Assembly: GCF_963921235.1 (NCBI RefSeq)
Contig: NC_086097.1
Coordinates: 89,902,001 to 89,966,000, forward strand
Length of the DNA: 64,000 nt
Origin: Mobula hypostoma
Lineage: Eukaryota
Reading direction: 5' to 3'
The notes under the pieces were generated by a model. The model saw nothing but the letters and a program-made list of their open reading frames with translations. It was not told the origin of the DNA and ran no database searches. Shown here piece after piece: positions 6,591 to 59,414 of this stretch. The stretch's first letter is position 1. Every line of letters starts with the position of its first letter. Both the position numbers and the translations under genes were made by a program.

Positions 6591-9500
6591 ATTGCATCTA
6601 CAGCTTGTGCTTACACCTCCGATCACACACTCTACCGATGTCTTTCGTTAGCATATCCCTTCATTCCCTCACTCACATACACATACTGTTTTTTCCTCCT
6701 CTATACCCTCTCATCCCTCTGCTCCGCTGCTCCCCCCATACCTTGCTGCCCTGCCTCTCACCCTCCCTGCTGCTTTCCAGGTAGTGCCTTCTCCTGCCTT
6801 CGTCCCCACGCCCTCCTGTCCTACCATTGCACTTTTCTCTCCATCTGTCCCTTCCAGGAGTCGTACAGCGTGGTAACAGGTCCTTTGACCCACCAACTCT
6901 GCACCCACCTTCAGCAGCCCATTTACATGACTCCCATCTGTTTCTCCCTACCTGCCTCTGGAGTAGAACACTGGCTGGCAGCACTTTACCATGTTCCAAT
7001 TCACAAACGTTTTGGTTCTGGGAGAAAATCAGAACATCTGGAAGGAGACCACGTAAACTCCTCACAAAGGGCACCGAAGGTCACGATTGAACCTGGGTCT
7101 CTGGTGTCGTCAGGCAGCAGTTCTACACGACCATTTCCCTCTCCCACCCCTCTCTCATGTCTACTCAAATATCCTTCAGTGCTGTGGTGTCCAGGAATAG
7201 GACTGAGACACTTGGTCCTCTACAGCGCAACAGCACAATGATGGCTTTGGAGGAGAATCAGTCAGAAGATTGTACAGAATGGAAACAGGATATTCGGCCC
7301 ATCCTGTCCAGGCTGACCAGCGGACGCTCAACAATCACTGGGGCAGGCAGACAACAGCAGAAGAACAGCTGGCCCCAGATCGCCTTACTGCACTTTAGCA
7401 CAACCTCAATCAAAGGTGTAGGTGCCTTTACCTGTAGAGAATTCCCCAGTCGCCAAGACAGCTCACTTCCATTTCATCCCTATTAATGCAGGCTTTGGTA
7501 GGGTGTTAACCCAGCACATTAGCAAGGTGCTAGTAACAGCCCATAGAGTCGTCGAGGTGCACTGAGTGTACACCCCAACAGGTAAAAGGTTTAATGCATT
7601 GTAACATCAGAGTAAATTCATGAGGGAACACCTTCCCGGTTCAGCATTAAAAACCTTGCAGGGAATTGACTCACCCTTGGCCCTTACGTCATTACATGTC
7701 CTTGCATGCATGTAAAGCAACATGAACATGTATAAGACAACACAACCTCACATGTACTTAGTTGTCAATTCCAAGTACAGTAACTTTTACCCTGGAGCAG
7801 AAGGTACAAGCTTGTAGCATACTTTGCACAACTGGGGAAGTGTTAAAATGGTATGATATCAGAACTCTCAACAGCATTGGAAATACAGTACTGTGCAAAA
7901 GTGTGGTGCAATAATAACAGGGTTGTCGTGATGGGAGATATTAACTTCCCGAATATTGATGGGCATCTCCCTAGAGCAAGGGGTTTAGATGGGGTGCAGT
8001 TTGTTGGGTGTGTTCAGGAAGGTTTCTTGACACAATATGTAGATAAGCCTACAAGAGGAGAGGCTGTACTTGATCTGGTATTAGGAAATGAACCTAGTCG
8101 GGTGTCAGGTCTCTCAGTGGGAGAGCATTTTGGAGATAGTGATCACAATTCTATCTCCTTCACCACAGCATTGGAGAGGGATAGGAACAGACAAGTTAGG
8201 AAAGCGTTTAATTGGAGTAAGGAGAAATATGAAGCTATCAGACAGGAACTTGGAAGCATAAATTGATGTTCTCAGGGAAATGTACAGCAGAAATCTGGCA
8301 AATGTTCAGGAGATATTTGAGTGGCCTTCTGCATAGGTACATCCCAATGAGACAGGGAAAGGATGGTAGGGTACAGGAACCGTAGTGCACAAAGGCTGTT
8401 GAAAATCTAGTCAAGAAGAAGAGCTTAGAAAAGGTTCAAAAAACTAGGTAATGTTAGAGATCTAGAAAATTATAAAGCCAGCAGGGAGGAGCTTAGGAAT
8501 GAAATTAGGAGAACCAAAGGGGACATGACAAGGTCTCGGCAAGCAGTATTAAGGAAAACCCCAAGACATTCTACAAGTATGTGAAGAGCAAGATGATAAG
8601 ATAGGAGAGAAAAGGACCAATCAAGTGTGACAATGGAAAAGTGTGTATGGAACCAGAGGAGATAGTAGAGGTACTTAGTGAATACTTTGCTTCAGTATTT
8701 ACTACGGAAAAGGATCTTGGCGATTGTAGGGATGATTAATAGCGGACTGAAAAGCTTGAGCATATAGACATTAAGAAAGAGGTTGTGCTGGAGGTTTTGG
8801 AAAGCATCAAGTTGGATAAGGTACCGGGACCAGACAAAATATACCCAAGGCTACTGTGGGAGGCAAGGGAGGAGATTACTGAGCCTCTGGTAATGATCTT
8901 TGCATCATGAATGGGGATGGGAGAGGTTCCAGAGGATTGGAGAGTTGCAGATGTTGTTCCCTTATTCAAGAACTTGAGTAGAGATAGCCCAGGAAATTAT
9001 AGACCATAAGACCATAAGATGTAGGAGCAGAAGTAGGCCATTCGACCCATCGAGTCTGCTCTGCCATTAAATCATGGGCTGATCCAATTCTTCCAGTCAT
9101 CCTCACTCCCCTGCCTTCTCCCCATACCCTTTGATGCCCTGGCTAATCAAGAACCTATCTATCTCTCTCTTAAATGCACCCAATGACTTGGCCTCTACAG
9201 CCACTTGTGGGAACAAATTCTACAGATTTACCACCTTCTGACTAAAGTAATTTCTCTGCATCTCTGCTCTAAATGGACGTCCTTCAATCCTGAAGTCGTG
9301 CCTTCTTGTCCTAGACTCCCCTACCATGGCAGATAACTTTGCCATATCTAATTTGTTCAGGCCTTTTAACGTTTGAAATGTTTCTATGAGATCCCCCCTC
9401 ATTCTCCTGAACTCCAGGGATTACAGCCCAAGAGCTGCCAGACATTCCTCATACGGTAACACTTTCATTCCTGGAATCATTCTCGTGAATCTTCTCTGAA

Positions 9501-10328
9501 CCCTCTCCAATGTCAGTATATCCTTTCTAAAATAAGGAACCCAAAACTGCACACAATATTCCAAGTGTGGTCTCACAAGTGCCTTATACAGTCTCAACAT
9601 CACATGCCTGCTCTTATATTCTATACTGTTAGAAATGAATGCCAACATTGCATTCGCCTTCTTCACCACCGACTCAACCTGGAGGTTAACCTTTAGGGTA
9701 TCCTTCACAAGGACTCCCAAGTCCCTTTGCATCTCTGCATTTTGAATTATCTCCCCATCTAAATAATAGTCTGCCTGTTTATTTCTTCCACCAAAGTGCA
9801 TGACCATACACTTTACAACATTGTATTTCATTTGCCACTTCTTTGCCCATTCCCCTAAACTATCTAAGTCTCTCTGCAGGCTTTCTGTTTCCTTAACACT
9901 ACCCGTTCTTCCACCTATCTTTGTATCATCAGCAAATTTAGCCACAGATCCATTCATCTCATAGTCCAAATCATTGACATACATCATAAAAAGCAGCGGT
10001 CCCAACACCGACCCCTGTGGAACTCCACTGGTAACCGGCAGCCAGCCAGAATAGGATCCCTTTATTCCCACTCTCTATTCCCAATGCTCCACCCATGCTA
10101 GTAACTCCCTTGTAATTCCATGGGCTCTTATCTTGCTAAGCAGCCTCATCTGTGGCACCTTGTCAAAGGCCTTCTGAAAATCCAAGTACACCACATCTAC
10201 TACATCTCCTTTGTCTACCCTGCTTGTATTTTCCTCAAAAAATTGCAGTAGGTTAGTCAGGCAGGATTTTCCTTTCAGGAAACCATGCTGGCTTTGGCCT
10301 ATCTTCTCATGAGCCTCCAGGTACAGGT

Positions 10329-12056
10329 GTCTATATGGACTTCAGTAAGGCCTTTGACAAGGTTCCACACGGAAGGTTAGTTAGGAAGGTTCAATCATTA
10401 GGCATTAATATGGAAGTGGTAAAAGGGATTCAGCAGTGGCTAGATGGGAGACGCCAGAGAGTAGTGGTGGATAACTGTGTGTCAGATTGGAGGACGGGGT
10501 GTAGCGGTGTGCCTCAAGGATCTGTACTGGGTCCAATGTTGTTTGTAATATATATTAATGATCTAAGATGATGGGGTGGTAAATTGGATTAGTAAGTATG
10601 AAGATGATACTAAGATAGGTGGTGTTGTGGATGATGAGGTAGGTTTTCAAAACTTGCAGAGAGATTTACGACAGTTAGAAGAGTGGGCTGAAAGATGGCA
10701 GATGGAGTTTAATGCTGAAAAATGTGAGGTGCTACATTTTGGTAGAACTAATCAAAATAGGACATAGATGGTAAATGGTAGGGCATTAAAGAATGCTTTA
10801 GAACAGAGGGATCTAGGAATAATGGTGCATAGTTCCCTGAAGATAGAATCTCATGTGGATAGGGTGGTGAACAAAGCTTTTGGTTTGCTGGCCTTTATTA
10901 ATCAGAGCATTGAGTATAGGAGTTGGGATGTAATGTTGAATTTGTATAAGGCATTGGTAAGGCCAAATCTGGAGTATTGTGTACAGTTCTGGTCACCGAA
11001 TTATAGGAAAGATGTCAATAAAATTGAGAGAGTACAGATGAGGTTTACTAGAATGTTACCTGGGTTTCATCTCCTAAGTTACAGAGAAAGGTTGAACAAG
11101 TTAGGTCTTTAATCTTTGGAGTGTAGAAGGTTGACGGGGGACTTGATAGAGGTGTTTAAAATTATGAGGGGGATAGATAGAGTTGACGTGGTTAGACTTT
11201 TTCCATTGAGAGTGGGGAAGATTCAAACAAGAGGGCATGGGTTGAGAATTAGAGGACAAAAGTTTAGAGGTAACATGAGGGGGAACTTCTTTACTCAGAG
11301 AGTGGTAGCTGTGTGGAATGAGCTTCCAGCAGAAGTGGTTGAGGCAGGTTCTATGTTGTCGTTTAAAGTTAAATTGGTTAGATATACGGACAGCAATACA
11401 CATCAAAGTTGTCGGTGAACGCAGCAGGCCAGGCAGCATCTCTAGGAAGAGGTACAGTTGACGTTTTAGGCCGAGACCCTTCGTCAGGACTAACTGAAGG
11501 AAGAGTTAGTAAGAGATTTGAAAGTGGGATGGGGAGATCGAAAATGATAGGAGGAGACAGGAGGGGGAGGGATGGAGCCAAGAGCTGGACAGGTGATTGG
11601 CAAAGGGGATATGAGAGGATCATGGGACAGGAGGCCCAGGGAGAAGGAAAAGGTGGTGGGGGGGGGAACCCAGAGGATGGGCAAGGGGTATAGTCAGAGG
11701 GACAGAGGGAGAAAAAGGAGAGTGAGAGAAAGAATGTGTGTATAAAAATAAATAGCGGATGGGGTACGAGGGGGAGGTGGGGCATTAGTGGAAGTTAGAG
11801 AAGTCGATGTTCATGCCATCAGGTTGGAGGCTACTCAGTCGGAATATAAGGTGTTGTTCCTCCAACCTGAGTGTGGCTTCATCTTGGATGGGGTATGAGA
11901 TAGGGTCCTCTTGTTTGAGATATATGGACAGGAAAGGAATGGAGGGTTATAGGCTGAGTGCAGGTCGATGGGAATAGGATAGGGTAAGAGTTCAGCATGG
12001 ACTAGAAGGGCCGAGATGGCCTGTTTCCGTGCTGTAATTGTTATATGGTTATGTGG
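10329..12056 (+). mobile_element. 5'-truncated CR1 LINE 'C' inserted in the left TIR of the Tigger element
   Basis: Begins VYMDFSKAFDKV; RT carries stops. The 3' tail gttatatggttatgtggt is followed by the rest of the Tigger terminus (gcttttcgaa). Confidence 0.88.
11394..11917 (-). mobile_element. Penelope 3' fragment nested in CR1 'C'
   Basis: Terminal repeat plus GIY-YIG tail. Flanked by AGATATACGGACAG (11380-11393) and AGATATATGGACAG (11918-11931). Its hammerhead GAAA is mutated to AAAA. Confidence 0.85.
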
Positions 12057-16300: not shown

Positions 16301-16818
16301 ATCCCACTGGCTGTGATTATCCCTTATCTCCTGCCTGTCCTTTCTATCATCTCTGTTGCACGCTATCTTTGATTTATTTCTGTTTTCCCCTTCCTTAGCC
16401 CTATCACTCCGGTTCCCATCCCCCTGCCAAATTAATTTAAACCCTCCCTAACAGCTCTATTAAACCTGCTCGCTAGGATATTGGACCCCTTTGGGTTCAG
16501 GTGCAACCTGTCCTTTTTGTACAGGTCATACCTCCCCCAGAAGATGCCCCCCCAGTGATCCAGGAACCCGAAGCCCTGCCCCCTACACTAGTCTCTCAGC
16601 CGCGCATTAATATGCCTGATCATGCTCTTCTTGCGCTCGTTAGCACGTGGCACAGGCAGCAATCCTGAGATTACTACCCTGGAGCTTCCTACCCAACTCC
16701 CTGAATTCTCCTACAGGACCTCCTACCTTTTTCTACCTATGTCATTGGTACCAACGTGTACCAAGACTTCTGGCTGTTCATCCTCTCCCTTCAGAATACT
16801 CTAAATCCAATCTGACCA

Positions 16819-18099
16819 GTGAGTCTTGCTTCAGTTGTTGGTAAGTTGATGGAGAAGATCCTGAGAGGCAGGATTTATGAACATTTGGAGAGGTATAATA
16901 TGATTAGGAAAAGTCAGCATGGCTTTGTCAAAGGCAGGTCGTGCCTTGCGAGACTGATTGAACTTTTTGAGGATGTGACGAAACATGTTGATGAAGGGAG
17001 AGCAGTAGATGTAGTGTGTATGGATTTCAGCAAAGCATTTGATAAGGTACTCCATGCAAGGCTTATTAAGAAAATAAGGAGGCATGGGATCCAAAGGGAC
17101 CTTGCTTTGTGGATCCAGAATTGGCTTGCCCACAGAAGGCAAAGAGTAGTTGTAGATGGGTCATATTCTGCATGGAGGTTGGTCACCAGTGGTGTGCCTC
17201 AGGGATCTGTTCTGGGAATCCTTCTCTTCGTGATTTTTACAAATGACCTGGATGAGGAAGTGGAGGGATGGTTTATTAAATTTGCTGATGACACAAAGGT
17301 TGGGAGTGTTGTGGATAGTGTGGAGGACTGTCAGAGGTTACAGTGGGACATCGATAGGATGCAAAACTGGGCTGAGAAGTGGCAGATGGAGTTCAACCCA
17401 GATAAGTGTGAGGTGATTCATTTTGGTAGGTCAAATATTATGGCACAATATAGTATTAATGGTAAAACTCTTGGCAGTGTGGAGGATCAGAGGGATCTTG
17501 GGGTCCGAGTCCATAAGACACTCAAAGCTGCTGCGCAGTTTGACTCTGTTGGTAAAAAGGCATATGGTACATTGGCCTTCATCAACTGTGACGTTGAGTT
17601 CACGAGTCAAGAGGTAATGTTACAGCTATATAGGACCCTGGTCAGACCCCACTTGGAGTACTGTGCTCAGTTCTGGTCACCTCACTGCAGGAAGGATGTG
17701 GAAGCTATAGAAAGGGTGCAGAGGAGATTTACAAAGATGTTGCCTGGATTGGGGAGCATGCCTTATGAGAATAGGTTGAGTGAACTTGGCCTTTTCTCCT
17801 TGGAGTGGCGGAGGATGAGAGGTGACCTGATAGAGGTGTACAAGATGATGAGAGGCATTGATCATGTGGATAGTCAGAGGCTTTTTCCTAGGACTGAAAT
17901 GGCTAACACAAGAGGGCACAGTTTTAAGGTGCTTGGAAGTAGGTACAGAGGAGATGTCAGGGCTAAGTCTTTTACGCAGAGAGTGGTGAGTGCGTGGAAT
18001 GGGCTACCCGCAACAGTGGTGGAGGCGGATACGATAGGGTCTTTTAAGAGAGTCCTGAATAGGTACATGGAGCTTAGAAAAATAGAGGGCTATGGGTAA
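16819..18099 (+). pseudogene. Open 426-codon reverse transcriptase segment of CR1 'A'
   Basis: Motifs QHGF, DFSKAFDKV, GVPQGSVLG, FADDTK and RPHLEYC. The segment is cut off from its N-terminal half by the nested insertion. Confidence 0.9.
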
Positions 18100-29090: not shown

Positions 29091-31715
29091 AGTTTTATTT
29101 TGACATTTATGTTGTAAAAATCATGAAGAAACCACAAACCATGGGTTTTATCATTCCTGTAATAGGTAATAAAGGTCAGAATTTTTTAAAAAAAAGGTCT
29201 CTCTGGAGCCTCTATTTACATGCTAAGAGCAGAGAGAACTGCAGCCTTTTTCTTTGCACGCAAGCTGTGCTTGACTGGCACACAGCCCGCTGTCCTGGCA
29301 TGAGGCTGGGTCTATTTATACTATCTGCTAATGCTGGAACAGAGTGCATGGATGGTCCCTGTGATCCCGACAGCACAGGGAGATTACACGTGTGCACCGC
29401 CAACAAGATCACTCTTCGGCAGGCCAGCCTCCAGGACTTAACTGCACCCCAGCGAGATCGGAAACAGCTTGAAATGTCTGAGTCTTGACCAGAGACCATA
29501 CTCATTCCGGCAAAGAGTCGCAGAGAGTGCATATTTGGAACCATCTTTTAATTCAGAACAGTTAAGATTATGCGGTATGTAGCTGTTTGAAGAAAGCATC
29601 AAAGCCTTCCATTTTAATTCAAGTAAATAGTCCCCTAATGGAGTTAAATAGATTAAACAGAAACAGACAATTCCCACCCCCCCAACCCCAACTAGTCCAC
29701 ATGAGCCTCCCTTGCTCTACCTCATCTGACCTGTAAATAAGTCTTTCTATTCCTTTCCCCTCTTGCATATTTAGCTTCTATGCATAAATACAACTATCCA
29801 ATCATTGCAAATAATAGTCATTTCCACAATCTAAAGGTGTTTTTCCAGAAGCTATGTTGGATTTTTTTGGGTTTTTTGTAATTATCTTAAATTTGTGAAC
29901 CCTGCTGTCCCATTACCAGCATGGAAACATTTTCTCCATCTCTTCTTTATTAAGACCATTTTTAAAGAGCTAATTCATGGCTCCTTATCCCAGAAAAAAA
30001 AACCTAGATGGGCTTTCTACATAACGCTAAGAAATTTTTTTCAAAATGTATTTTTCTTTTAGAATCTTTTAATTTTGTAATGATCATAAACACACACAGT
30101 ACTCCTGACTGTAGCCCAACCAAGGTCTAGTAGATTTAATATAACTTCCCTGTGTTCAATTCTAATTCCATGGAGATGAACTCAGTGTTCTGCTGATATT
30201 TGTTCTGGCCTTGCTAATTTTAATGATTTGTAAATGTATATCCCTTGATCCCTTTGCTTTCCACCCATTTCATTTTCCAAACAGCATGGGGCTCCTTATT
30301 CCCCATTTCAAAATGCACTCTCTCCCACTGATACATACTGGAATTCACTTAACTGCCGGTCTGCAAAGTATTAATGTTGTTTTGTTTTTCACTCTAGATT
30401 TTACTGAGTATTAACTCAATTTGGGTTCACTCACCAACTTTGAAATTGTATTTCTGAATCCTAAATGTTATCTTGTATGGTGAACAGCAGCGGTCCCAGT
30501 GCCAGTAGTTGAGAAGCATCATATCCCACCTTTTGCCAAGGATAACCCCTTTCCATATAAGCACTGAATGCTCCCTGTGTGCAAAGCTGTTGTAAAACGC
30601 AGGCGAGAAGCTGGTACAAATGCCCATGACACGGCTCTGCATAGGTGTTAAGAATGTATTGGTTTCAGGCAACAAACACTTGTATGTCAGGGTCAAGAGA
30701 AAGGAAGAAGGACAGAAGGAAAGAAAGTAAGAAGGGAGGGATGGAGGAAGGGAGGATGTTGATCCAGTTTCATCAGCTTTTGCTTGTTGATAGCCGACTG
30801 ATCTAAATACAGATCCCTAATTCCATCACTCAGCAGCTTCCTGCCTGCTGGGTTTGTCTATCTGTAGTGATTTAATAAAGTTCTCTCACATTGAGTCAAT
30901 AACCCCTCTCCCAGGTCCCAGTGTTATTCACTGAACCTCCGTCGAAATGACTGTGGCTCCCTCACACAGTCACTCTGTAAAACTAATGGCAGCAACCTGG
31001 GCTGCTGGCTACCTTTTAAAAATCATTTTCAGGATCTGGACGTCACCGACAAGGCTTGGATAAGTTATCCATCCTTACCTGCCCTGAAGATGGTGGCGAG
31101 CTGCTTTCTGCCTTCTTGAAACTTCCCACACTATCACTCAGCAGACCCCACTACCCCAGTACCCTGTGTCCCCCAGTGTATTACCAATGGCAGTAGTCCA
31201 GTTCCCTCACAAGGTCCCTCAGTAACCCCCCCCCTCCCACAGCAGCATGTGTTACTGACCATCTCTCTTTTGTGTCCATCAACTCTCTCACATTGTCACT
31301 CGGTAACACCACTTTTCCCCAGCACCGTGTCACTAGCTCTATCTCCACTGATGTTAATCCAGCTTCTTCACACTGTCACTCAGTAAAACTCTCTTCTCCA
31401 GCATCCTGTATTGACGACTGCATCTCCACTGATACCGATTCAGATTTGTGCTGCAGTTTTCTTCAGTCACATGGTATCTTGTTGCTGTAGGAACCTGAGG
31501 TAAATGATCTCCTCAGTTGGGTCCCAGTACGTTGACACCAATGCAAAAGCAATGCACCTCAAGGGCACATTTGAACAAATGTCTCAGTGACGAAGATACC
31601 TGGGAGGCAGAGTTAGCCTCTGCACAATTGCAACCATCGTTTGTCAATCATGGATGGGTTTTATTCCAACTCCACACCCTGACCCACACACGTTTTAGTT
31701 TACTTTGCAACCTAC

Positions 31716-31900
31716 CCTTTCCACGTACGAGCTGTGGAACTGATCCCCGATCTGCCGTAGTTTCTGCCCGATCCGGACTTCCACTCTGTCCACCGGTAGC
31801 AAATCCAGCGGGATGTCATCCGCCTGATCGCCGAGGGATGCTCTGCTGGCCCGCGGCACTTCAAAAACTTCCGAAAATTGCAACCGGTGCCCTGCATTAC
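31716..31900 (-). CDS. BMF: BMF-like second coding exon containing the BH3 domain
   Basis: Acceptor cttccctcctAG, then GT AAT GCA completes the split Gly codon from the upstream exon. Reads GNAGHRLQF...VEVRIGQKLRQIGDQFHSSYVER (BH3 LxxIGDxF). Donor AGG|GTAGGT is phase 0. Confidence 0.93.
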
Positions 31901-33036
31901 CTAGGAGGGAAGTCAAGCAAACCATCAGCCCAGCGCAGATACAGTTCCTCTGCCCACTCACCTCCACCAGCTCCCTTCTCAATAAACTGTGCAGGGAAAA
32001 TAAACTTGCTGCTTTTTCTGAGGGTTCATTAGAAGCACAGACACAGTATAAAACTGTGATCACTACATGATAAAACTGGTCAATTCTGTTCGTGGACATA
32101 ACTTAAAGGATGGACCTGCAACTAGTTCAACACTTGTGACTGCATTTGTGATGAGAAAAGGCTACGTATATCAAATTGGAATTTCCCCCTCCATTAAAAA
32201 TATTATTCTCTCATTCCTCTTATTATTCTGTCTTCACACAAACACAGAAATACCCACAGATACAAGTAAAAATATGCATGCATTGACATATGACTATCCG
32301 CAAATAGTTCAAAATAAAATTTCAAAACCGTTGAAATGGAGGAAAAGCAAACATGAATTTGATGATTATTATACACTTTATAGAGATTTTGAACACAGGT
32401 GTTTGGGTAAATATTTCACTCTGCCAACGGACACAAGACCCTAAGAAAACCAGAGCTGGAATAGGCCACTCGCCTCCTCGAGCCTGCCCCGAAATTCAGT
32501 CTGACCATAGCTGGCTCCTGTTAGGGATAGTGTAGCTAATGGACAGAAAATTTATTCCAAGCTCATTGTGCTTCTGACAATCAGTGAAGAAGTAAAGCGT
32601 GGATGTTAGATATTTCTTCCCCCAAACCAGCTCCCCACATTCCATACAGACTCACAGGAGTCTGGAACACAATTGCCAGCTGTGAAAGTGGTGCTGACCT
32701 CCTGCACGTTTTCACAGTTCTTGTTTGGAGCTTTAATTAATACAACTCCATTAATCCGGCATTTGACTATCTGGAAATGCTGATGGTTCAGAAGCTGGTT
32801 CACTCATTGGACTGAAATGTGAGCCAGACATCCAGGGTACAGGAAGGATGTGTGGACGGGTTTGGCGATCGCGGGTGCAGCCAGATCTGGGGTCCTGACT
32901 GTGGGTCGGAGCACAGCAGGAGCCAGGGCTGGGGTTGGGAACACTTTTTTTTTAACTACAAAAATACATTTATTTCAAGCTCTGCCACACGACAAAAGTA
33001 CAACAAAAACGCTGGAAACAGCAGTAACTACAACCT

Positions 33037-35524: not shown

Positions 35525-35538
35525 TACACGCACGCACG

Positions 35539-35590
<52 letters not shown>
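35525..35590. repeat. Compound (CACG)/(CG)/(CA)n microsatellite
   Basis: Uninterrupted alternating purine-pyrimidine run. Confidence 0.95.
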
Positions 35591-35592
<2 letters not shown>

Positions 35593-35657
35593 CTGATTAC
35601 AATGTCATCCCTGACTTTGGGAGCTTTACAGGGAATTATACTCTGGTGATGAGAGGC

Positions 35658-35873
35658 CTCTGGCTAAGGAAGGGCCGAGCTCGAAGAAGCAGCCGCGGCT
35701 GGAGGCCAACACGGCCTCGGGCTCGAGTTTGGTGGGGGCGGCGATGGGCGGTGCCATGGCGGCCAGCGAGAACAAACTGGAGGAGAGGCTGTACTCGGTG
35801 CTGTCGCAAGATCGAAGAAGATGGAGGTGCATAGCTGCCAGCCCCGGATTCGGGACGGCACCCACTGACTGAC
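35658..35873 (+). pseudogene. Chimeric retro-insertion: ZFTRAF1/CYHR1-like exon-1 fragment fused to an RTE-like 3' end
   Basis: Reads PSSKKQPRLE...ENKLEERLYSVL, then (S)QDRRRWR and an ACTG-repeat tail. Flanked by TGATGAGAGGC at 35647-35657 and 35874-35884. Confidence 0.7.
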
Positions 35874-36156
35874 TGATGAGAGGCTGGTGTAAGAAAAACA
35901 TACAGCAGCCATTCCACAGATAGCAAGCTCCCACACAACCAGCAAACATACAAATGGACAGATAATTCATGTTGAGATGTCAAATCAAGGAGAAGGCAGA
36001 ATAATAGGGAATCACCTCTGAGGTGTTGTTCCTACATTCAACCAAGGAGCCAGTGGTTTAACTTCCCATTTGAGAGAGAGTGCCTCCAATCTTATAGACT
36101 GCACTGTTGTCTAGACCAGGCTGCTGACAGAGTTTCCGCAGGGATATTGTTACATT

Positions 36157-36465
36157 CAGTGCCCATAAGAAGTATTCAACCGCCCCCCAGAAGTTTCCAT
36201 GTTTTAATGTTTTACAACATTGAATCAGAGTGGATTTAATTTGGCCTTTTTTGCCATTGATCAACAGAAAAAGACTCTTTTGTGTCAAAATAAAAATACT
36301 TTGTAGAGCTCTGTTTTCACTTTGAGTCTTTTTCTGTTGATCAGTGTAAAAAAATAGCCAAATTAAGTCCACTCTGATTCAATGTTGTAAAACAACAAAA
36401 CGTGAAAACTTCCAAGGGTGGTGGGGGTGGGGGAGAAGGTGGTGAATGCTTTTTTATAGGCACTG
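36157..36465. mobile_element. Tc1-derived palindromic MITE
   Basis: Two head-to-head TIRs of the 51041-52613 family. Further TIR fragments lie at about 36938-37095, 55230-55301 and 63716-63800. Confidence 0.85.
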
Positions 36466-51040: not shown

Positions 51041-52613
51041 CAATGTATATAAAAGGTATTCAGTTCCCTTGGAAGTTATCACGTTTTATTGTTTTACAAC
51101 ATTGAATCACAGTGGATTTAATTTGTTTTTTTTTGACACTGATCAACAGAAAAAGACTCTTTCGTGTAAAAGTGAAAACAGATCTCTGCAAAATGATCCA
51201 AATTAATTAAAAATATAAAACACAAAATAATTGATTGCATAAGTATTAACCCCCCACCTTTTAACATGACACACCAAATCATCACTGATACAGCCAAAAT
51301 TGTTTTTTTGAAGTCACACGATTATTTAAATAGAGATCTGTTTTTGGAGACCTGTGTGCAGTCAAGGTGGTTCAATTGATTGTAGTAAAAATACACCTGT
51401 ATCTGGAAGGTCCAACTGCTGGCGAGTCAGTATCCTGGCAGAACTACACCATGAAGACAAGACACTCCAAGTAACGCAGTGAAAAGGTTATTGAAAAGCA
51501 CATGTCAGGAGATGGATACAAGAAAAATACAAAATATCTCTTGGAGCACAGTTAAGTCAATCATCAAGAAATGGAAAGAATATGGCACAGCTGTAAATCT
51601 GCCTAGAGCAGGCCACCCTCAAAAACGGAGTGACCGTGCAAGAAGGAGACGAGTGAGGGAGGCCACCAAGAGACCTATAAGAACTCTGGAGGAGTTACAA
51701 GATTCAGTGACTGAGATGCTTCACTACTGTTGCCTGGTGCTACACCAGTCACAGCTTTATGGGAGAGTGGGAAGAAGAAAGCCATTGCTGAAAAAAAACT
51801 CAGTTGAAATCTTGGCCAGGGTTTGCCAGAAGTCATGTGGGAGACTCTGAAATCAGCTGGAAGAAGGTTCTGTGGTCTGATGAAACCAAAATTGAGCTTT
51901 TTGGCCATCAGACTAAATGCTGTGTTTGGAGTAAACCAAACACCGCACATCATCAAAAACACACCATCCCTACCGTGAAGCTTGGTGGTGGCTGCATCAC
52001 GCTGTGGGGATGCTTCACTGCAGCAGGCCCTGGAAGGTTTATGAAGGTAGAGGGTAAAATGAATGCAGCAAAATACAGGGAAATCCTGGAGGAAAACCCG
52101 ATTTAGTCTGCAAGAGAACTGCGACTTGGGAGAAGATTTGTTTTCCAGCAAGACAATGCTCCCGAGCATAAAGCCAAATCTACACAGGAATAGCTTAAAA
52201 ACAACAAAGCTAATGTCCTGAAGTGGCCCAGTCACAGTCTAGACCTCAATCCAATTGAGAATTTGTGGCTGGACTTGTAAAAAGGGCTGTTCACTCATGA
52301 TCCCCATATAATCTGACAGAGTTTCAGCAGTTTTGTAAAGAAGAATGGGGAAAAATTGCAGTGCCCAGATGTCAAAGCTGGTAGAGACATATCCACACAG
52401 ACTCAAGGCTGTAATTGCTGCCAAAGATGCATCATCATTGTTATAAATTTAGACCAATTTGTAGAAAGTTGCTTTCACTTTGACATGAAAGGGTCTTTTC
52501 TGTTGATTAGTGTCAAAAAAAGCCAAATTAAATCCACTGTGATTCAATGTTGTAAAACTATAAAACATGAAAACTTCCGGGGGGGTGGTGGTGAATACTT
52601 TTTATGGGCACTG
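51041..52613 (+). mobile_element. Near full-length Tc1-family DD34E transposon with inactivated transposase
   Basis: TA-flanked with long TIRs. ATG at 51451; WKKVLWSDETKIELFG; FQQDN followed by 34 residues to the E of DLNPIE. Several stops and frameshifts. Confidence 0.92.
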
Positions 52614-54025: not shown

Positions 54026-54748
54026 AACAGGAATTCTGCAGATGCTGGAAATTCAAGCAACATACATCAAAGTTGCTGGTGAACGCAGCAGGCCAAGCAG
54101 CATCTGTAGGAAGAGGCGCAGTCGACGTTTCAGGCCGAGACCCTTCATCAGGACTAACTGAAGGAAGAGTGAGTAAGGGATTTGAAAGCTGGAGGGGGAG
54201 GGGGGGATGCAAAATGATAGGAGAAGACAGGAGGGGGAGGGATAGAGCCGAGAGCTGGACAGGTGATAGGCAAAAGGGGATACGAGAGGATCATGGGACA
54301 GGAGGTCCGGGAAGAAAGACAAGGAGGGGGGGTGACCCAGAGGATGGGCAAGAGGTATATTCAGAGGGACAGAGGGAGAAAAAGGAGAGTGAGAGAAAGA
54401 ATGTGTGCATAAAAATGAGTAACAGATGGGGTACGAGGGAGAGGTGGGGCCTTAGCGGAAGTTAGAGAAGTCAATGTTCATGCCATCAGGTTGGAGGCCA
54501 CCCAGACGGAATATAAGGTGTTGTTCCTCCAACCTGAGTGTGGCCTCATCTTTACAGTAGAGGAGGCTGTGGATAGACATGTCAGAATGGGAATGGGATG
54601 TGGAATTAAAATGTGTGGCCACTGGGAGATCCTGCTTTCTCTGGCGGACAGAGCGTAGATGTTCAGCAAAGCGGTCTCCCAGTCTGCGTCGGGTCTCACC
54701 AATATATAAAAGGCCACATCGGGAGCACCGGACGCAGTATATCACCCC
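54026..54748 (-). mobile_element. Young Penelope 3' fragment (open GIY-YIG domain and terminal repeat)
   Basis: GVIYCVRCSRCGLLYIGETRRRLGDRFAEH...IDFSNFR*. Exact 9-bp TSD ATTGTAGAC (54017-54025, 54749-54757). Confidence 0.9.
54119..54160 (-). ncRNA. Minimal hammerhead ribozyme motif in Penelope terminal repeat (best-preserved copy)
   Basis: Minus strand reads AGTC-CTGATGA-agggtctcggcct-GAAAC-GTC-GACT. Stem I is AGTC/GACT and a palindromic ACGT replaces stem III. Confidence 0.65.
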
Positions 54749-56337
54749 ATTGTAGACTTCAGTCGAGGGGACACACACACAAGTCCTCATCGAGGGATCA
54801 GCAGAGGAAAGGGTGAGCAGTTTCAATTTCCTGGGGGTCAACATCCCTGAAGATCAATCCTGGGCACAACATACTGATGCAATCACAAAGGAGGGACTAA
54901 AGCAGCTATGTTTCATTAGGAGTTTGAAGAAATTCGGTATGACACCAAAGTTATCTGATTCTACAGATACACCGTGGAGAGCATTCGCACTGGCTGTATC
55001 ACCACCTGGTATGGAGGGGCCACTGTAGAGGATCGGTGAAACCTGCAGAAGGTTGCATACTCAGCCAGCTCTATCACAGACAATAGCCTCCCCAGCATTG
55101 AGGACATCTTCAAAAGGCAGTGCCTCAAAATGTGGCATTTATCATTTAGTACCTTCATCACCCAGGACATGCCCTCTTCTCATTGCTACCATCAGGGAGG
55201 AGGTACAGGAGCCTGAAGATACACACTTGTCTTCAATATTGTTGTAAAACAATAAAACATGAAAACTTCCGAAAGGGGTCGAATACTTTTTATAGGCACT
55301 GTGTTTACTGAGATACCTTATGGTGAATGACTCACCTGCTGATATCCTGAAGCCTTTTCACCATCCATGAGGCACGATTCAGGAGCATGATGGAGCACCC
55401 TCCACTTGCCTCGATAAGTGTAGCTCCAACAACACTTAAAAAGCTTGAAGAGAAATCAGGGGAAGACGAAAAAAGGAACAGCAGAGAGAAGGAAATAAAG
55501 TTAGGAGAGAAGTAAGTGTGAGGCATGAAGGAAAGGTAGGGAGAAATGGAAAGGGAAGGCTGAGAACAGAGAAGGGGGGAATGAGACATGGAGGCTGTAG
55601 AAACCAAGTATCTGTCTATTGCCTGTCTGTATTGTACCTGTGTTGCACGTCCTCACTCTGGATTAAGGTCATCTGTCACATGGCTTTATTAGAAATGAGT
55701 GCATACAGTCACCTGTTCACCGCCTTGGAGTCATACAAAGGGGTGGGAGTAGGGAGTGAATATTTTCTGTTGGCCGCTCATCTTTGTTTGAATTTGATCC
55801 AATTACATTCGTCTCGCTCGTCTTTGTTTTACGTGAATAACCGAAGAGTCGGATGATTTTACAGGTGGTTTCTAGTAAAAGGTTAAATGTACTTTTCTGA
55901 GTTGGAACTCAGTTAGTTGGAAGAGTGTCATACTCCCTTCACTGAGCCCCTCGGTGACCTGGAGTTCATTTTCAGGTAGTCGCTACACAGGCAATTAAAG
56001 AGAAACGAGAGGCTGAGCGAAGGGTGCAGAGATGGGGAGGGAGATTTGGAAAAGAAAGCCAAGGGGAGAAGAAAGTGGTTGAATAGAGAGACGAGATGAG
56101 CAGAGAAGGAGCAAGCCAGTTAGCACAAACAAGAGAGAAAAACAGATCACTTGAATGCCTTCCTTGCATTTGATTTAAATACAAGTCCTGAATGAGAAAA
56201 GGCTGCTTGACAGGGCTGCTCAGTGCAGAGATAATAATCTTGAAGCAAAAGTACGCGAACGCACTATTAAAAAATAGAACATTGTGTGTCCAAGTAACAA
56301 GTGAAATTATCAATGGAAAGCAAAAAAAAAAGATTAC

Positions 56338-56632
56338 CATAGAACAGTCTCTGTGGCTCACTTCCAACTCCACTGGGTAACATGGGATTGGGTAACTCCG
56401 GGTGCAGGGCTGAAGGAGTTGAACTGGATGTTTGGGTGCCCCTGTCACACTGTTCCCTGTGGCTATATGGCGATCCGTAGGATTGTGCCTGTGAAAACAG
56501 CCGGGGGCGGGCTGGATTCCAGCTGGGCGGACAGTTCCCTCTGGCCTCGCTGTACCCGCTGTCGGGAGCCATCAGGTCATGGTCGAACACCTCATCGTCG
56601 GTGTCAAGGTCCTCCGCCTCGCACAGATCCAT
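56338..56632 (-). CDS. BMF: BMF-like (Bcl-2-modifying factor) first coding exon
   Basis: Translates MDLCEAEDLDTDDEVFD...CDRGTQTSSSTP...MLPSGVGSEPQRLFY-G. This matches the BMF acidic N-terminus, the (K/R)xTQT dynein light chain motif and MLPCGVxEEPQRLFYG. ATG at 56632 has a strong context (gacATGG). Acceptor tcttttcgttctgatcttAG puts the exon start at 56704. Donor G|GTAATC is phase 1. Confidence 0.93.
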
Positions 56633-59414
56633 GTCATTCAACCCTAGCCTTACAGTTTACCCTCTGGGAGAAGCTCTCTCGGAAGTGGAAGCAGAGAATG
56701 GTACCTAAGATCAGAACGAAAAGACTGGTTAAAGCAACAGGGTAAAAGCATCCCGTCCGAGCCCGCATTTTGCTGACTTGGGGTTTCCCATTGCGGAAGG
56801 TCTGCTGAGTGAGTTGCCAAGGTTAGTCAGTCCTTACGCAAAGTGCTTGAGGAAGGCAGCACATCCAGCAACATCAGGCAGCTGATTAAGGACTGAAGTC
56901 AGCAGAATGCAGAGCTCCTCCAGCGTTTTGTGTGTGCTGCCCACGATTTCCAGCATCTGTAGAATATCATGTGTTTAGACAGACCTCTTGTACCTTTGGC
57001 TGCTTCACTGAGAATTAATGAGATCACAACCCATTCTTTTATTCCTCACCTTAAATCTCTGGTCTTCTGCTCTGGGGAAAAAAAAAGTTTATCACTATCT
57101 ACCCTATCAGTGCCTCACACTTATTTCCATTTGCACAAAACTTAAAACTTCCTGACATAAACTAGGAACTGTGGCGGTCAATTTGTGCACAGTTCCCACA
57201 AAACAGAAATTAGATCATCTGCTTGAGTGTTGCTGCAGAGAAACGATTACCACTCAGGATGCAAGGTAGAAACGCTGCGTTTTCCTTCCAGCAGAACAGT
57301 GTGATCTTTTACAGATACTGGGGAGGGCAAAGAGGTTCTCCGCTTAACAAAGTGATGGTACTGCAATATGCAGCAGTCCCGCAGTTCTACATAAGAAAAT
57401 GCCATCTTAGATAACGACATCCACACCGAATGCACGGCCACCAACAATTTGCAGAGCAGACATCAAAAGTGCCTTCATCTTGCTCCAGATCAGCAGTGTA
57501 CTAAAAACATAACCTAAAAACAACCACGGAAGAGGCAAGACTTCAGTGAGATACTGACAGTCTACTGTAAATGACGTCAGGCAATTTACAAAAACATCCT
57601 TGTGTTTTATTGAGAAAATGTCGTTCTGTTTACAGAACCACAGGTGGTACAGATGGAGACAGAGTTGGAAGGACAGGCAAACATAAAGTGCCATGCAAAT
57701 CACCAGCACAGAGGTAGACCCACTCTGAAAAAAAACAAATTCCAGGGAAGAGACAATAAAATGCAAACAGCTAAAATGGACTTAAAACAGACACAACTCC
57801 AATCTACACAGTTAACTTTCAGCTGGAAAAATATACTCAAAAAGCTTTATACAAACCAAAGCAGAGGATGTTGGAAATACTCAACAGGTCAGGCAGCGTC
57901 TGTGGAGTTAACTACAGTTTGGTGACATTTCATCAGTTTGGAAGGGGTTGAAACAAAAGAAGTTTACTGAAGTAGAGAAAGCTGGAAATGTGAAGTTCTC
58001 TCCACCAGCCTTGCTTATCTTATTTGCACAGTTCCGATGAAAGACCATTGACCTATAAAATTAACTCAGTTTCTTTCTCAACCGATGTGACTTGATCAGC
58101 TGAGTATTTCCAGAATTCTCTTTTATTTCACGTTACCAGTAAATGCAATATTCTACTTCACACCATTCTAGCATTTCTTTTCTCTCTCTCTCTCTGAACT
58201 GAATTCATTCATCTCATTCTGCTCACTCCTCCAGACAGATCGGCTGAAATTACCACGCTCTCAATACCGTCTGCCAGCTCTTGCATTGTTCCATCACCTT
58301 AGGTCTCCAGTTTAGCAGAGACAGCCATTTGCTTTTCTCCACTCTTTCCCTCTGCCATGCAATATAAGATGTAGCTGAATTTAACATTTCCTAGGCCTGA
58401 TGAAAGGTCACCAGCCAGAAATTTTAACTCTGCCTGTCCCCACAGATGCCGCCTGACTTGCAGAGTATTATCTCAGAACAAAGTTGCTAGGAGCTTCTAC
58501 AGTTTTATTGCTTACATAATAATGCAGTAAAAAGGAACAGGGAACATGCCACCCAGACTCCCCTCCCCCCACCAAGCTCACTCCATCAATTAACAAGAGC
58601 ACGGCTGATCTCTTACCTCAAATCCATTTTACTTCACCTCCGATGACCCTCCTGTCCAGAAATCAGCTTTGTTTTGAACATAAGCCAAGACTAGGCATGC
58701 CAGAACTCCACCACCCTCTTGCCCTTCACTTTTAGGCCTAAATAGCCCACTCCTTAACTTGAAATCATTCCCTTTCATTCAAGACTCCTTAGCCAAAGAA
58801 TCCTTCACCCTGGATCTGCTCTGTCAGTCTGATAGTTTTATACATTTTTGGCTAGATCATCTTGCATTTTCTTTATCACCAGAGATCGGTTTATGCTCAT
58901 TTGACAAATCTACCACCATCAGGACCAGTCTAGTAAATCTTTGCTGCATTCCTTTTCTAGTAAGTAATCCTATTTTAGGTAAGAACAAAATCGAACACAG
59001 TACATAATAGTCCAGATGCAATACCATCACTCTCACTTGCTAAACATAACTGTAGCAAGGATATTAACTTTGTGCTCAAATCCTCTAACATACAGCTTCC
59101 CATGTAGTTGTCTTTCTAATTACCTGCTGTACCTATTTGTTAACTTCCAATGATTTCCATACAAGGACACCAATGTCCTATTGAACATCAGTATTTCCCA
59201 ATCTCACAAAACAATTTAGCATTTCTGTTTATTCTACCAAAGTGGATAGTCTCACAGTTTCCACATGGTTCTACATCTGCCATATTGTTGCTTGGTCACT
59301 CAGCCATTCCACATCATTTTTAAGTCTCATCACTCCTCATATTCTTAAATTCCGTGCTATAAGCAAACTTAAAAATATTACATTTGGTCCATTTAGCCAA
59401 AGCATTGATATACA

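Follow-up and report, generated by a model that had tools for sequence, protein, structure and literature searches.

A 577-nt RTE-type retroposon family in Mobula hypostoma with a permuted ZFTRAF1 exon and a probably ADAR-edited hairpin head

The window analysed here is a 64,000-nt stretch of Mobula hypostoma DNA (NC_086097.1, positions 89,902,001 to 89,966,000 of the forward strand), and coordinates below count from its first letter. It holds two minus-strand open frames with BMF-like exons (Pfam PF15185, with E-values of 1e-4 and 1e-5, both under the whole-protein cut-off, since single exons were scanned). As these exons lie on either side of a short GC-rich insertion, the insertion sits antisense in a BMF intron, the host intron that the initial annotation had named. 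The features around and within the insertion are as follows.

31698..32099, minus strand: open frame with a BMF exon including the BH3 region (Pfam PF15185)
35647..35657, plus strand: left copy of the target-site duplication, 11 bp (exact repeat; presumably single at the empty site)
35658..35666, plus strand: final 9 nt of piece B, a 40-bp stretch from further downstream in ZFTRAF1 exon 1 (gene comparison)
35667..35804, plus strand: piece A, a 138-bp stretch of ZFTRAF1 exon 1 (136/138 identity between family consensus and gene)
35805..35873, plus strand: 3′ end of an RTE-type LINE, with the last ORF codons and an (ACTG)n tail (LINE match)
35874..35884, plus strand: right copy of the target-site duplication (exact repeat)
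56267..56653, minus strand: open frame with an upstream BMF exon (Pfam PF15185)

Other repeats are found in the same window. A (CA)n microsatellite occupies 35526-35590, 60 bp to the left of the insertion site, and a very high-copy repeat starts 290 bp to the right of the insert (36170-36300). Frames at ~51.5-52.1 kb (51455-52238) presumably belong to a Tc1-type transposase, and the decayed reverse transcriptase and GIY-YIG-like frames at 9421-11112, 16816-18099, 2157-2705 and 54452-54853 are what we take to be CR1-type and Penelope-type remnants.

The insertion is bounded by the direct repeat TGATGAGAGGC, whose two 11-bp copies are 100% identical and lie 227 bases apart, exactly as first annotated, leaving 216 bp between them. 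With a GC content of 65-69% and a CpG observed/expected ratio of 0.83, against 42-44% in the 2-kb flanks and ~0.2, the insert is the CpG-rich island that had been described, but the surrounding intron, which had been called AT-rich, is only mildly so. The single reading frame of 70 residues is also present as written. The last 4 nt of the left duplication copy are common to the element and thus form a 5′ microhomology, and the right copy and the tail have a final TGA in common. Both named parts of the insert were correctly recognized: piece A matches ZFTRAF1 (CYHR1) exon 1, of which an unbroken copy exists elsewhere in the genome, and the tail matches a multi-copy LINE 3′ end (94% over 71 nt to the LINE copy L103). 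What had gone unnoticed is that 35658-35666 also derives from ZFTRAF1, from downstream of the main piece.

An empty site, which the initial annotation had proposed to look for in related species or haplotypes, was found when contigs of four public sequencing runs were compared with 35592-36300. In each of two related organisms, C and E, one contig lacks precisely 227 bases, the insert plus one repeat copy, with 58 letters on the short side in organism C and 32 in organism E. Many contigs of organisms B and C run across the insert sequence, indicating that the family is present in both. One contig of organism B (run X5) spans the joint of tail and flank but includes no more than 21 letters of the element, where our rule was 31, and hints at, without proving, the same insertion in that organism. 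Runs X11 and X12 (organisms D and E) gave no contig cover over 35664-35855, a gap that is not to be read as absence of the family and that carries no weight for dating.

The window insert is a 5′-truncated member of a 577-nt non-autonomous, non-coding retroposon family, whose full-length consensus is arranged in this way:

Element 1-57: inverted arm (LINE/arm alignment)
Between element 57 and 76: loop
Element 76-132: forward arm
Up to element 326: remainder of the LINE 5′ UTR
Element 327-366: exon piece B
Element 367-504: exon piece A
Element 505-577: LINE tail

A DNA search of the 3.48-Gb genome gave 1,294 candidates, and all 39 non-self matches among the 40 scored cover nearly the whole insert at 91-94% identity. 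The exact B/A junction occurs 308 times in the genome. From the overlap of two pattern listings on six contigs (16 sites common to listings of 81 and 99), we estimate 1,440-1,560 copies, or ~1,500, which is probably a lower bound. Removal of 8 LINE ends and 5 duplicates from 90 loci left 77 distinct copies, picked by patterns rather than at random, with a median difference from the consensus of 5.6% (2.6% outside CpG) and 64% of CpGs kept. At 31 of 75 copies, exact repeats of at least 7 bp (7-14 bp) flank the element; 200 shuffles gave a mean of 0.49 such copies and a maximum of 3. The 5′ end is fixed in 23 head-selected copies, and 6 of the 22 tail-selected copies are full length, with 19 reaching position 173 or further 5′. 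Starting at position 354, the window copy is among the shortest when set against those 22; truncation has removed the remainder of piece B and everything in the 5′ half of the element, and is of the usual 5′ kind, with a 4-nt microhomology to the target site. It had been judged recent on account of its retained CpGs, which overstates the case: it keeps 18 of the 25 consensus CpGs and differs by 4.9% overall and 2.3% outside CpG, values typical of the family. A division into subfamilies was rejected, the diagnostic sites being unlinked and the pattern star-like. Two identical family copies, L111 and L112 (G000:C12), lie ~100 kb apart in opposite orientation and are probably a local duplication or an assembly repeat.

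Among the first 30 of 387 matches to the tail, 22 are chimeras and 8 are LINE ends whose upstream sequence runs into a reverse transcriptase frame. Extended copies give a LINE of ~3.5 kb that encodes endonuclease and reverse transcriptase domains, and its relatives are single ORFs of ~1,010 aa. The LINE 3′ end agrees with the element tail at 93-99% over ~75 nt in 25 of 30 LINE loci. The 5′ UTR part of the chimera derives from the same LINE source, with deletions of 4, 7, 10 and ~80 nt, and the tail represents its last 70 nt. By analogy of architecture, (ACTG)n tail and motifs, among them a C-terminal one that we take to be typical of the clade, this partner fits the RTE clade. Clade features used for the placement come in part from PMC13174262. 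A search pattern for continuation of the chimera's 5′ part into the endonuclease start had no matches; the joint sits in the 5′ UTR. The 5′ end of the LINE itself extends into a GC-rich stretch (5′ of ~1413 in L103, from 1366 in L102). Its closest relatives among the 120 matches listed are the contig proteins P0080 (88%), P0078 (68%) and P0079 (65%), and no named vertebrate protein appears among those 120. Horizontal transfer of the LINE is a possibility. An inverted piece adjoins the LINE in 7 of 30 loci (L108, L076, L098, L097, L090, L072 and L095, with the same forward breakpoint in L072 and L095). All seven are inversions with a small deletion and none has a duplication; they resemble twin-priming inversions, which are known mainly from mammalian L1.

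The unbroken exon is confined to one genome locus, where it is the first coding exon of ZFTRAF1, and its peptide is best matched by ZFTRAF1 of Pristis (78%) and Leucoraja (72%). In the family consensus, gene positions 1519-1558 (piece B, 39/40) precede positions 1381-1518 (piece A, 136/138; L031, reverse strand). The contiguous 178 bp are thus an exact circular permutation, with the last 40 bp placed before the first 138 bp and zero loss at 1518|1519. Both pieces lie in the same, sense orientation, and both LINE/gene joints are blunt. Piece B ends 4 nt short of the exon's splice donor and piece A starts with AG; the B/A joint, in reversed order, is 2 nt short of a donor-to-AG joining. Two further nucleotides would give a 180-nt circle, formed either by joining the donor to the in-exon AG or through a 3-nt microhomology. 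These two bases are absent from the joint in all 100 copies listed of the 308, and a separate exact pattern, which a lone diverged copy would escape, matched only the gene; as the in-exon AG also lacks a pyrimidine tract, back-splicing is possible but unproven. A bipartite precursor without the exon was sought by two exact patterns, which a lone diverged precursor would escape: one returned seven matches, all of them chimera variants, and the other none. Since the exon piece sits exactly at the internal deletion of the LINE and the empty form was not found by these patterns, a single event likely brought about both the capture and the deletion.

At the other end of the element, positions 1-57 and 76-132 are reverse complements of each other, and both arms come from the LINE 5′ UTR with the same deletions. 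The hairpin of one real copy has a z of -4.45, and none of 200 shuffles was as stable. Compared with the LINE and the opposite arm, the transcript strand of the head carries G at 14 of its 21 A sites: three of these lie in the 5′ arm, two in the loop and nine, four of them in a row, in the 3′ arm. The 192 aligned bases that follow downstream contain 55 A sites, none of which reads G (Fisher p 2e-10), and none of the 19 T sites within the head reads C (p 6e-6). The A sites were counted by hand on LINE-to-element and arm-to-arm alignments, with one A in an ambiguous run omitted. Apart from these sites the head differs at three places only (one G-to-A, one C-to-T and one ambiguous indel). Because the LINE shows A at these sites and U has survived in the opposite arm, the change must have been A-to-G, after the duplication, in both arms and on one strand; 12 of the 14 new Gs pair with U in the fold. 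ADAR converts A to G on double-stranded RNA and avoids a 5′ G neighbour. Such a neighbour is present at 5 of the 14 changed and 6 of the 7 unchanged sites, a weak bias (p 0.063). The changes are clustered, lie on the transcript strand and are confined to the double-stranded region, as in an ADAR footprint, and editing by ADAR that became fixed in the founder is the likely explanation. All copies examined have the G-form, save for scattered, mostly CpG, changes, and the exact pattern of an unedited A-form precursor, which a lone diverged one would escape, had 0 matches genome-wide.

Private changes among the 77 copies were also tallied. Within the hairpin, A-to-G stands at 15/415 and T-to-C at 8/1102 (odds ratio 5.1, with one A:C mismatch site contributing 5), and outside it at 135/7370 and 53/4588 (ratio 1.6, one polymorphic site dropped); the A-to-G excess could stem from editing that has gone on since, or from a bias of the enzyme. 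Transcription may start at the first base of the arm, either from a candidate GC-box-like promoter or in appearance only, through an exonuclease halting at the hairpin. A strict SINE with a Pol III head was rejected, as the five full-length loci inspected have no tRNA (5/5), there is no B box and a T4 run occurs at position 33. A ribozyme or small-RNA head was likewise rejected: the same number of loci gave one weak, unrelated Rfam match, with none in L003, L012 and L023.

Several explanations compete for the exon piece. The order flip, the abutting breakpoints, the common orientation and the joints without homology are all present, and these are necessary, not sufficient, for a circular intermediate. 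We consider a circular template probable, with the reservation that two adjoining linear pieces joined in swapped order would leave the same sequence. An RNA circle is put forward tentatively as that template; it is slightly preferred over a DNA microcircle because of the sense orientation and the one end at a splice donor, both of which would be chance if the filler for the lost middle of the LINE had been a microDNA (178-180 bp) that came from the first exon, a CpG island, and was opened once. MicroDNAs have a size peak near 180 bp. If 2 nt were lost later, the gene ends would share the 3-nt microhomology by which such circles close, although no listed copy keeps these bases. MicroDNAs arise preferentially at exons, 5′ UTRs and CpG islands, and microhomology joins their ends (PMC8040306; PMC9527254); order flips of this kind are generally taken to indicate a circular DNA intermediate (PMC7450558). 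On balance this origin appears unlikely. Much the same can be said of a scheme without any circle, by which reverse transcriptase or end-joining would have linked two adjacent ZFTRAF1 RNA or DNA fragments in swapped order. All three joints are blunt, as this scheme expects, it needs no loss of 2 nt, and LINE-mRNA chimeras made by template switching or RNA ligation are documented (PMC13174262). Its doubtful side is the coincidence that it demands, namely the capture of both neighbours of one break, in the same orientation and with zero bases lost at the cut.

For the head, an origin in selection for a GC-rich promoter or in GC-biased mutation of the source copy would account for the two GC-box-like motifs missing from the A-form and the three additional CpGs that the changes created. 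It is nonetheless very improbable: a GC bias predicts T-to-C changes too, which are missing at the 19 sites, the changes end where the hairpin ends, the fold was slightly weakened by them (-108 kcal/mol against -114 for the A-form), and the copies display no stepwise series. The initial annotation had explained the insert by a one-off switch of the reverse transcriptase from LINE RNA to ZFTRAF1 mRNA at the window site, and the window copy taken alone does look like that. A count of the chimeric junction over the whole genome, which that annotation had itself proposed, yielded 233 exact occurrences of the same A/tail junction; sister copies extend further 5′ into the common element; the window copy shares the family's differences from the gene; and it begins in piece B, which lies downstream of A in the mRNA. 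The family matches, the 233 junctions and the permuted exon order refute a switch at this locus, which now has practically no likelihood. The idea that a LINE captured a host fragment had its parts right and the event in the wrong place, since the capture belongs, once only, to the founder.

Our main reading, to which we assign a probability of about 0.7, is that an RTE-mobilised family of ~1,500 copies descends from a founder that took up a small ZFTRAF1 exon-1 circle and whose head was hyper-edited by ADAR. During a single reverse transcription, the LINE enzyme would have quit its own RNA after ~70 nt and entered an exon 1 circle of 178-180 nt. It would have gone once round to the start of its own copy and then jumped to the LINE 5′ UTR. 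Such a jump would account both for the loss of ~3 kb of LINE and for the B-A order without gap or overlap, and a reverse transcriptase that halts on reaching its own copy in the circle would explain the exact abutment. The hairpin could have arisen by a 5′ inversion with duplication, as a variant of the frequent inversions of this LINE; with 7 of 30 loci inverted, all with deletion, a rarer inversion with duplication is plausible. ADAR would then have edited both arms in the transcript, and the strong pattern in the head suggests that the edited RNA was retrotransposed to become the source of all copies examined. Exon capture could have come before or after the formation and editing of the hairpin. 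Subsequent spread would have proceeded by target-primed reverse transcription, for which the 7-14-bp duplications and variable 5′ truncation largely speak. The fullest version of this scheme, that a one-round LINE copy of a first-exon circular RNA and a GC-rich, promoter-like head made by ADAR together gave rise to a 1,500-copy family, and that the same route may account for GC-rich heads in other RTE SINEs, is speculative and the odds are well against it.

A 93-aa frame runs through consensus positions 291-569, from the LINE 5′ UTR through B (out of frame) and A (in the gene frame) to the LINE C-terminus. A coding role was rejected, given that 28 of 70 copies retain it unbroken and that omega is ~0.78, near neutral, which does not point clearly to selection. 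We read the family as most likely a selfish passenger, putatively transcribed by RNA polymerase II. Its interest lies in the two rarely seen routes by which RNA or circles would reach the germline, combined in one element. A successful mobile family appears to descend from a founder in which the marks of a host antiviral editor were fixed, and an edited founder of this kind offers a testable origin for the GC-rich heads of obscure origin in RTE SINEs. A permuted coding exon amplified ~1,500-fold would be a natural record of small-circle capture. In practical terms, family copies will confuse read mapping and gene annotation, and, as they are near-identical to the first exon of ZFTRAF1, silencing RNAs directed against the family could also hit the gene.

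In the literature searched, judged by listings and the opening lines of abstracts and with Repbase and Dfam outside it, we did not find this family, a permuted coding exon body or ADAR marks in a retroposon consensus, and a CYHR1/ZFTRAF1 retroposon was not found among the literature matches listed. The accessible part of PMC13295347 contains no mention of "inversion". Exon capture as such is known from SVA-type composites, as in SVA_F1. Circular-RNA-derived pseudogenes (Dong et al. 2016, PMC4897178) show a non-colinear retroposed gene order, as seen here, with 33 copies of circRFWD2; they comprise annotated exons with an exact back-splice, whereas the present joint lies within exon 1, 2 nt short, in a body that is LINE-derived. 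Duplications through circular DNA intermediates (Chicote et al. 2020, PMC7450558) share the order flip, the abutting break and the blunt or microhomology joints, but they are large and two-copy, in contrast to 178 bp amplified ~1,500-fold by retrotransposition. LINE-1/mRNA chimeras (PMC13174262) also join first-exon sequence to a LINE part; there, the host piece is 5′, colinear and mostly the product of single events, and here it is internal, permuted and family-wide.

The closest frame is that of the bipartite RTE derivatives RTESINE1/2, WALLSI3, MAR4_MD and Bov-A (Kojima 2018, PMC5786205), which consist of a LINE 5′ UTR and the extreme 3′ end as in our family, and the hagfish SINE1-1_EBu (PMC7245038) has the same layout. 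These elements and the present family also have in common a microsatellite tail, a high copy number and target-site duplications (PMC5786205, PMC7245038); like them, the family is a uniform multi-copy unit with target-site duplications and no reverse transcriptase coding. In the described bipartite elements the LINE parts are directly joined, whereas here 178 bp of a host exon stand between them, which makes this family a variant, and its head is a self-derived, probably edited inverted repeat rather than a tRNA, 5S, 7SL or snoRNA. Bird RTE SINEs (Suh et al. 2016, cited in PMC7245038 and PMC5786205) likewise have a GC-rich head upstream of a bipartite RTE part; those heads are of obscure origin, whereas the head of the present family can be traced to the LINE 5′ UTR through inversion and A-to-G change. 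Within the literature searched, with Repbase and Dfam outside it, what is known is thus the frame of a bipartite RTE derivative, and what is new is the permuted coding exon body together with the probably edited, self-derived head.
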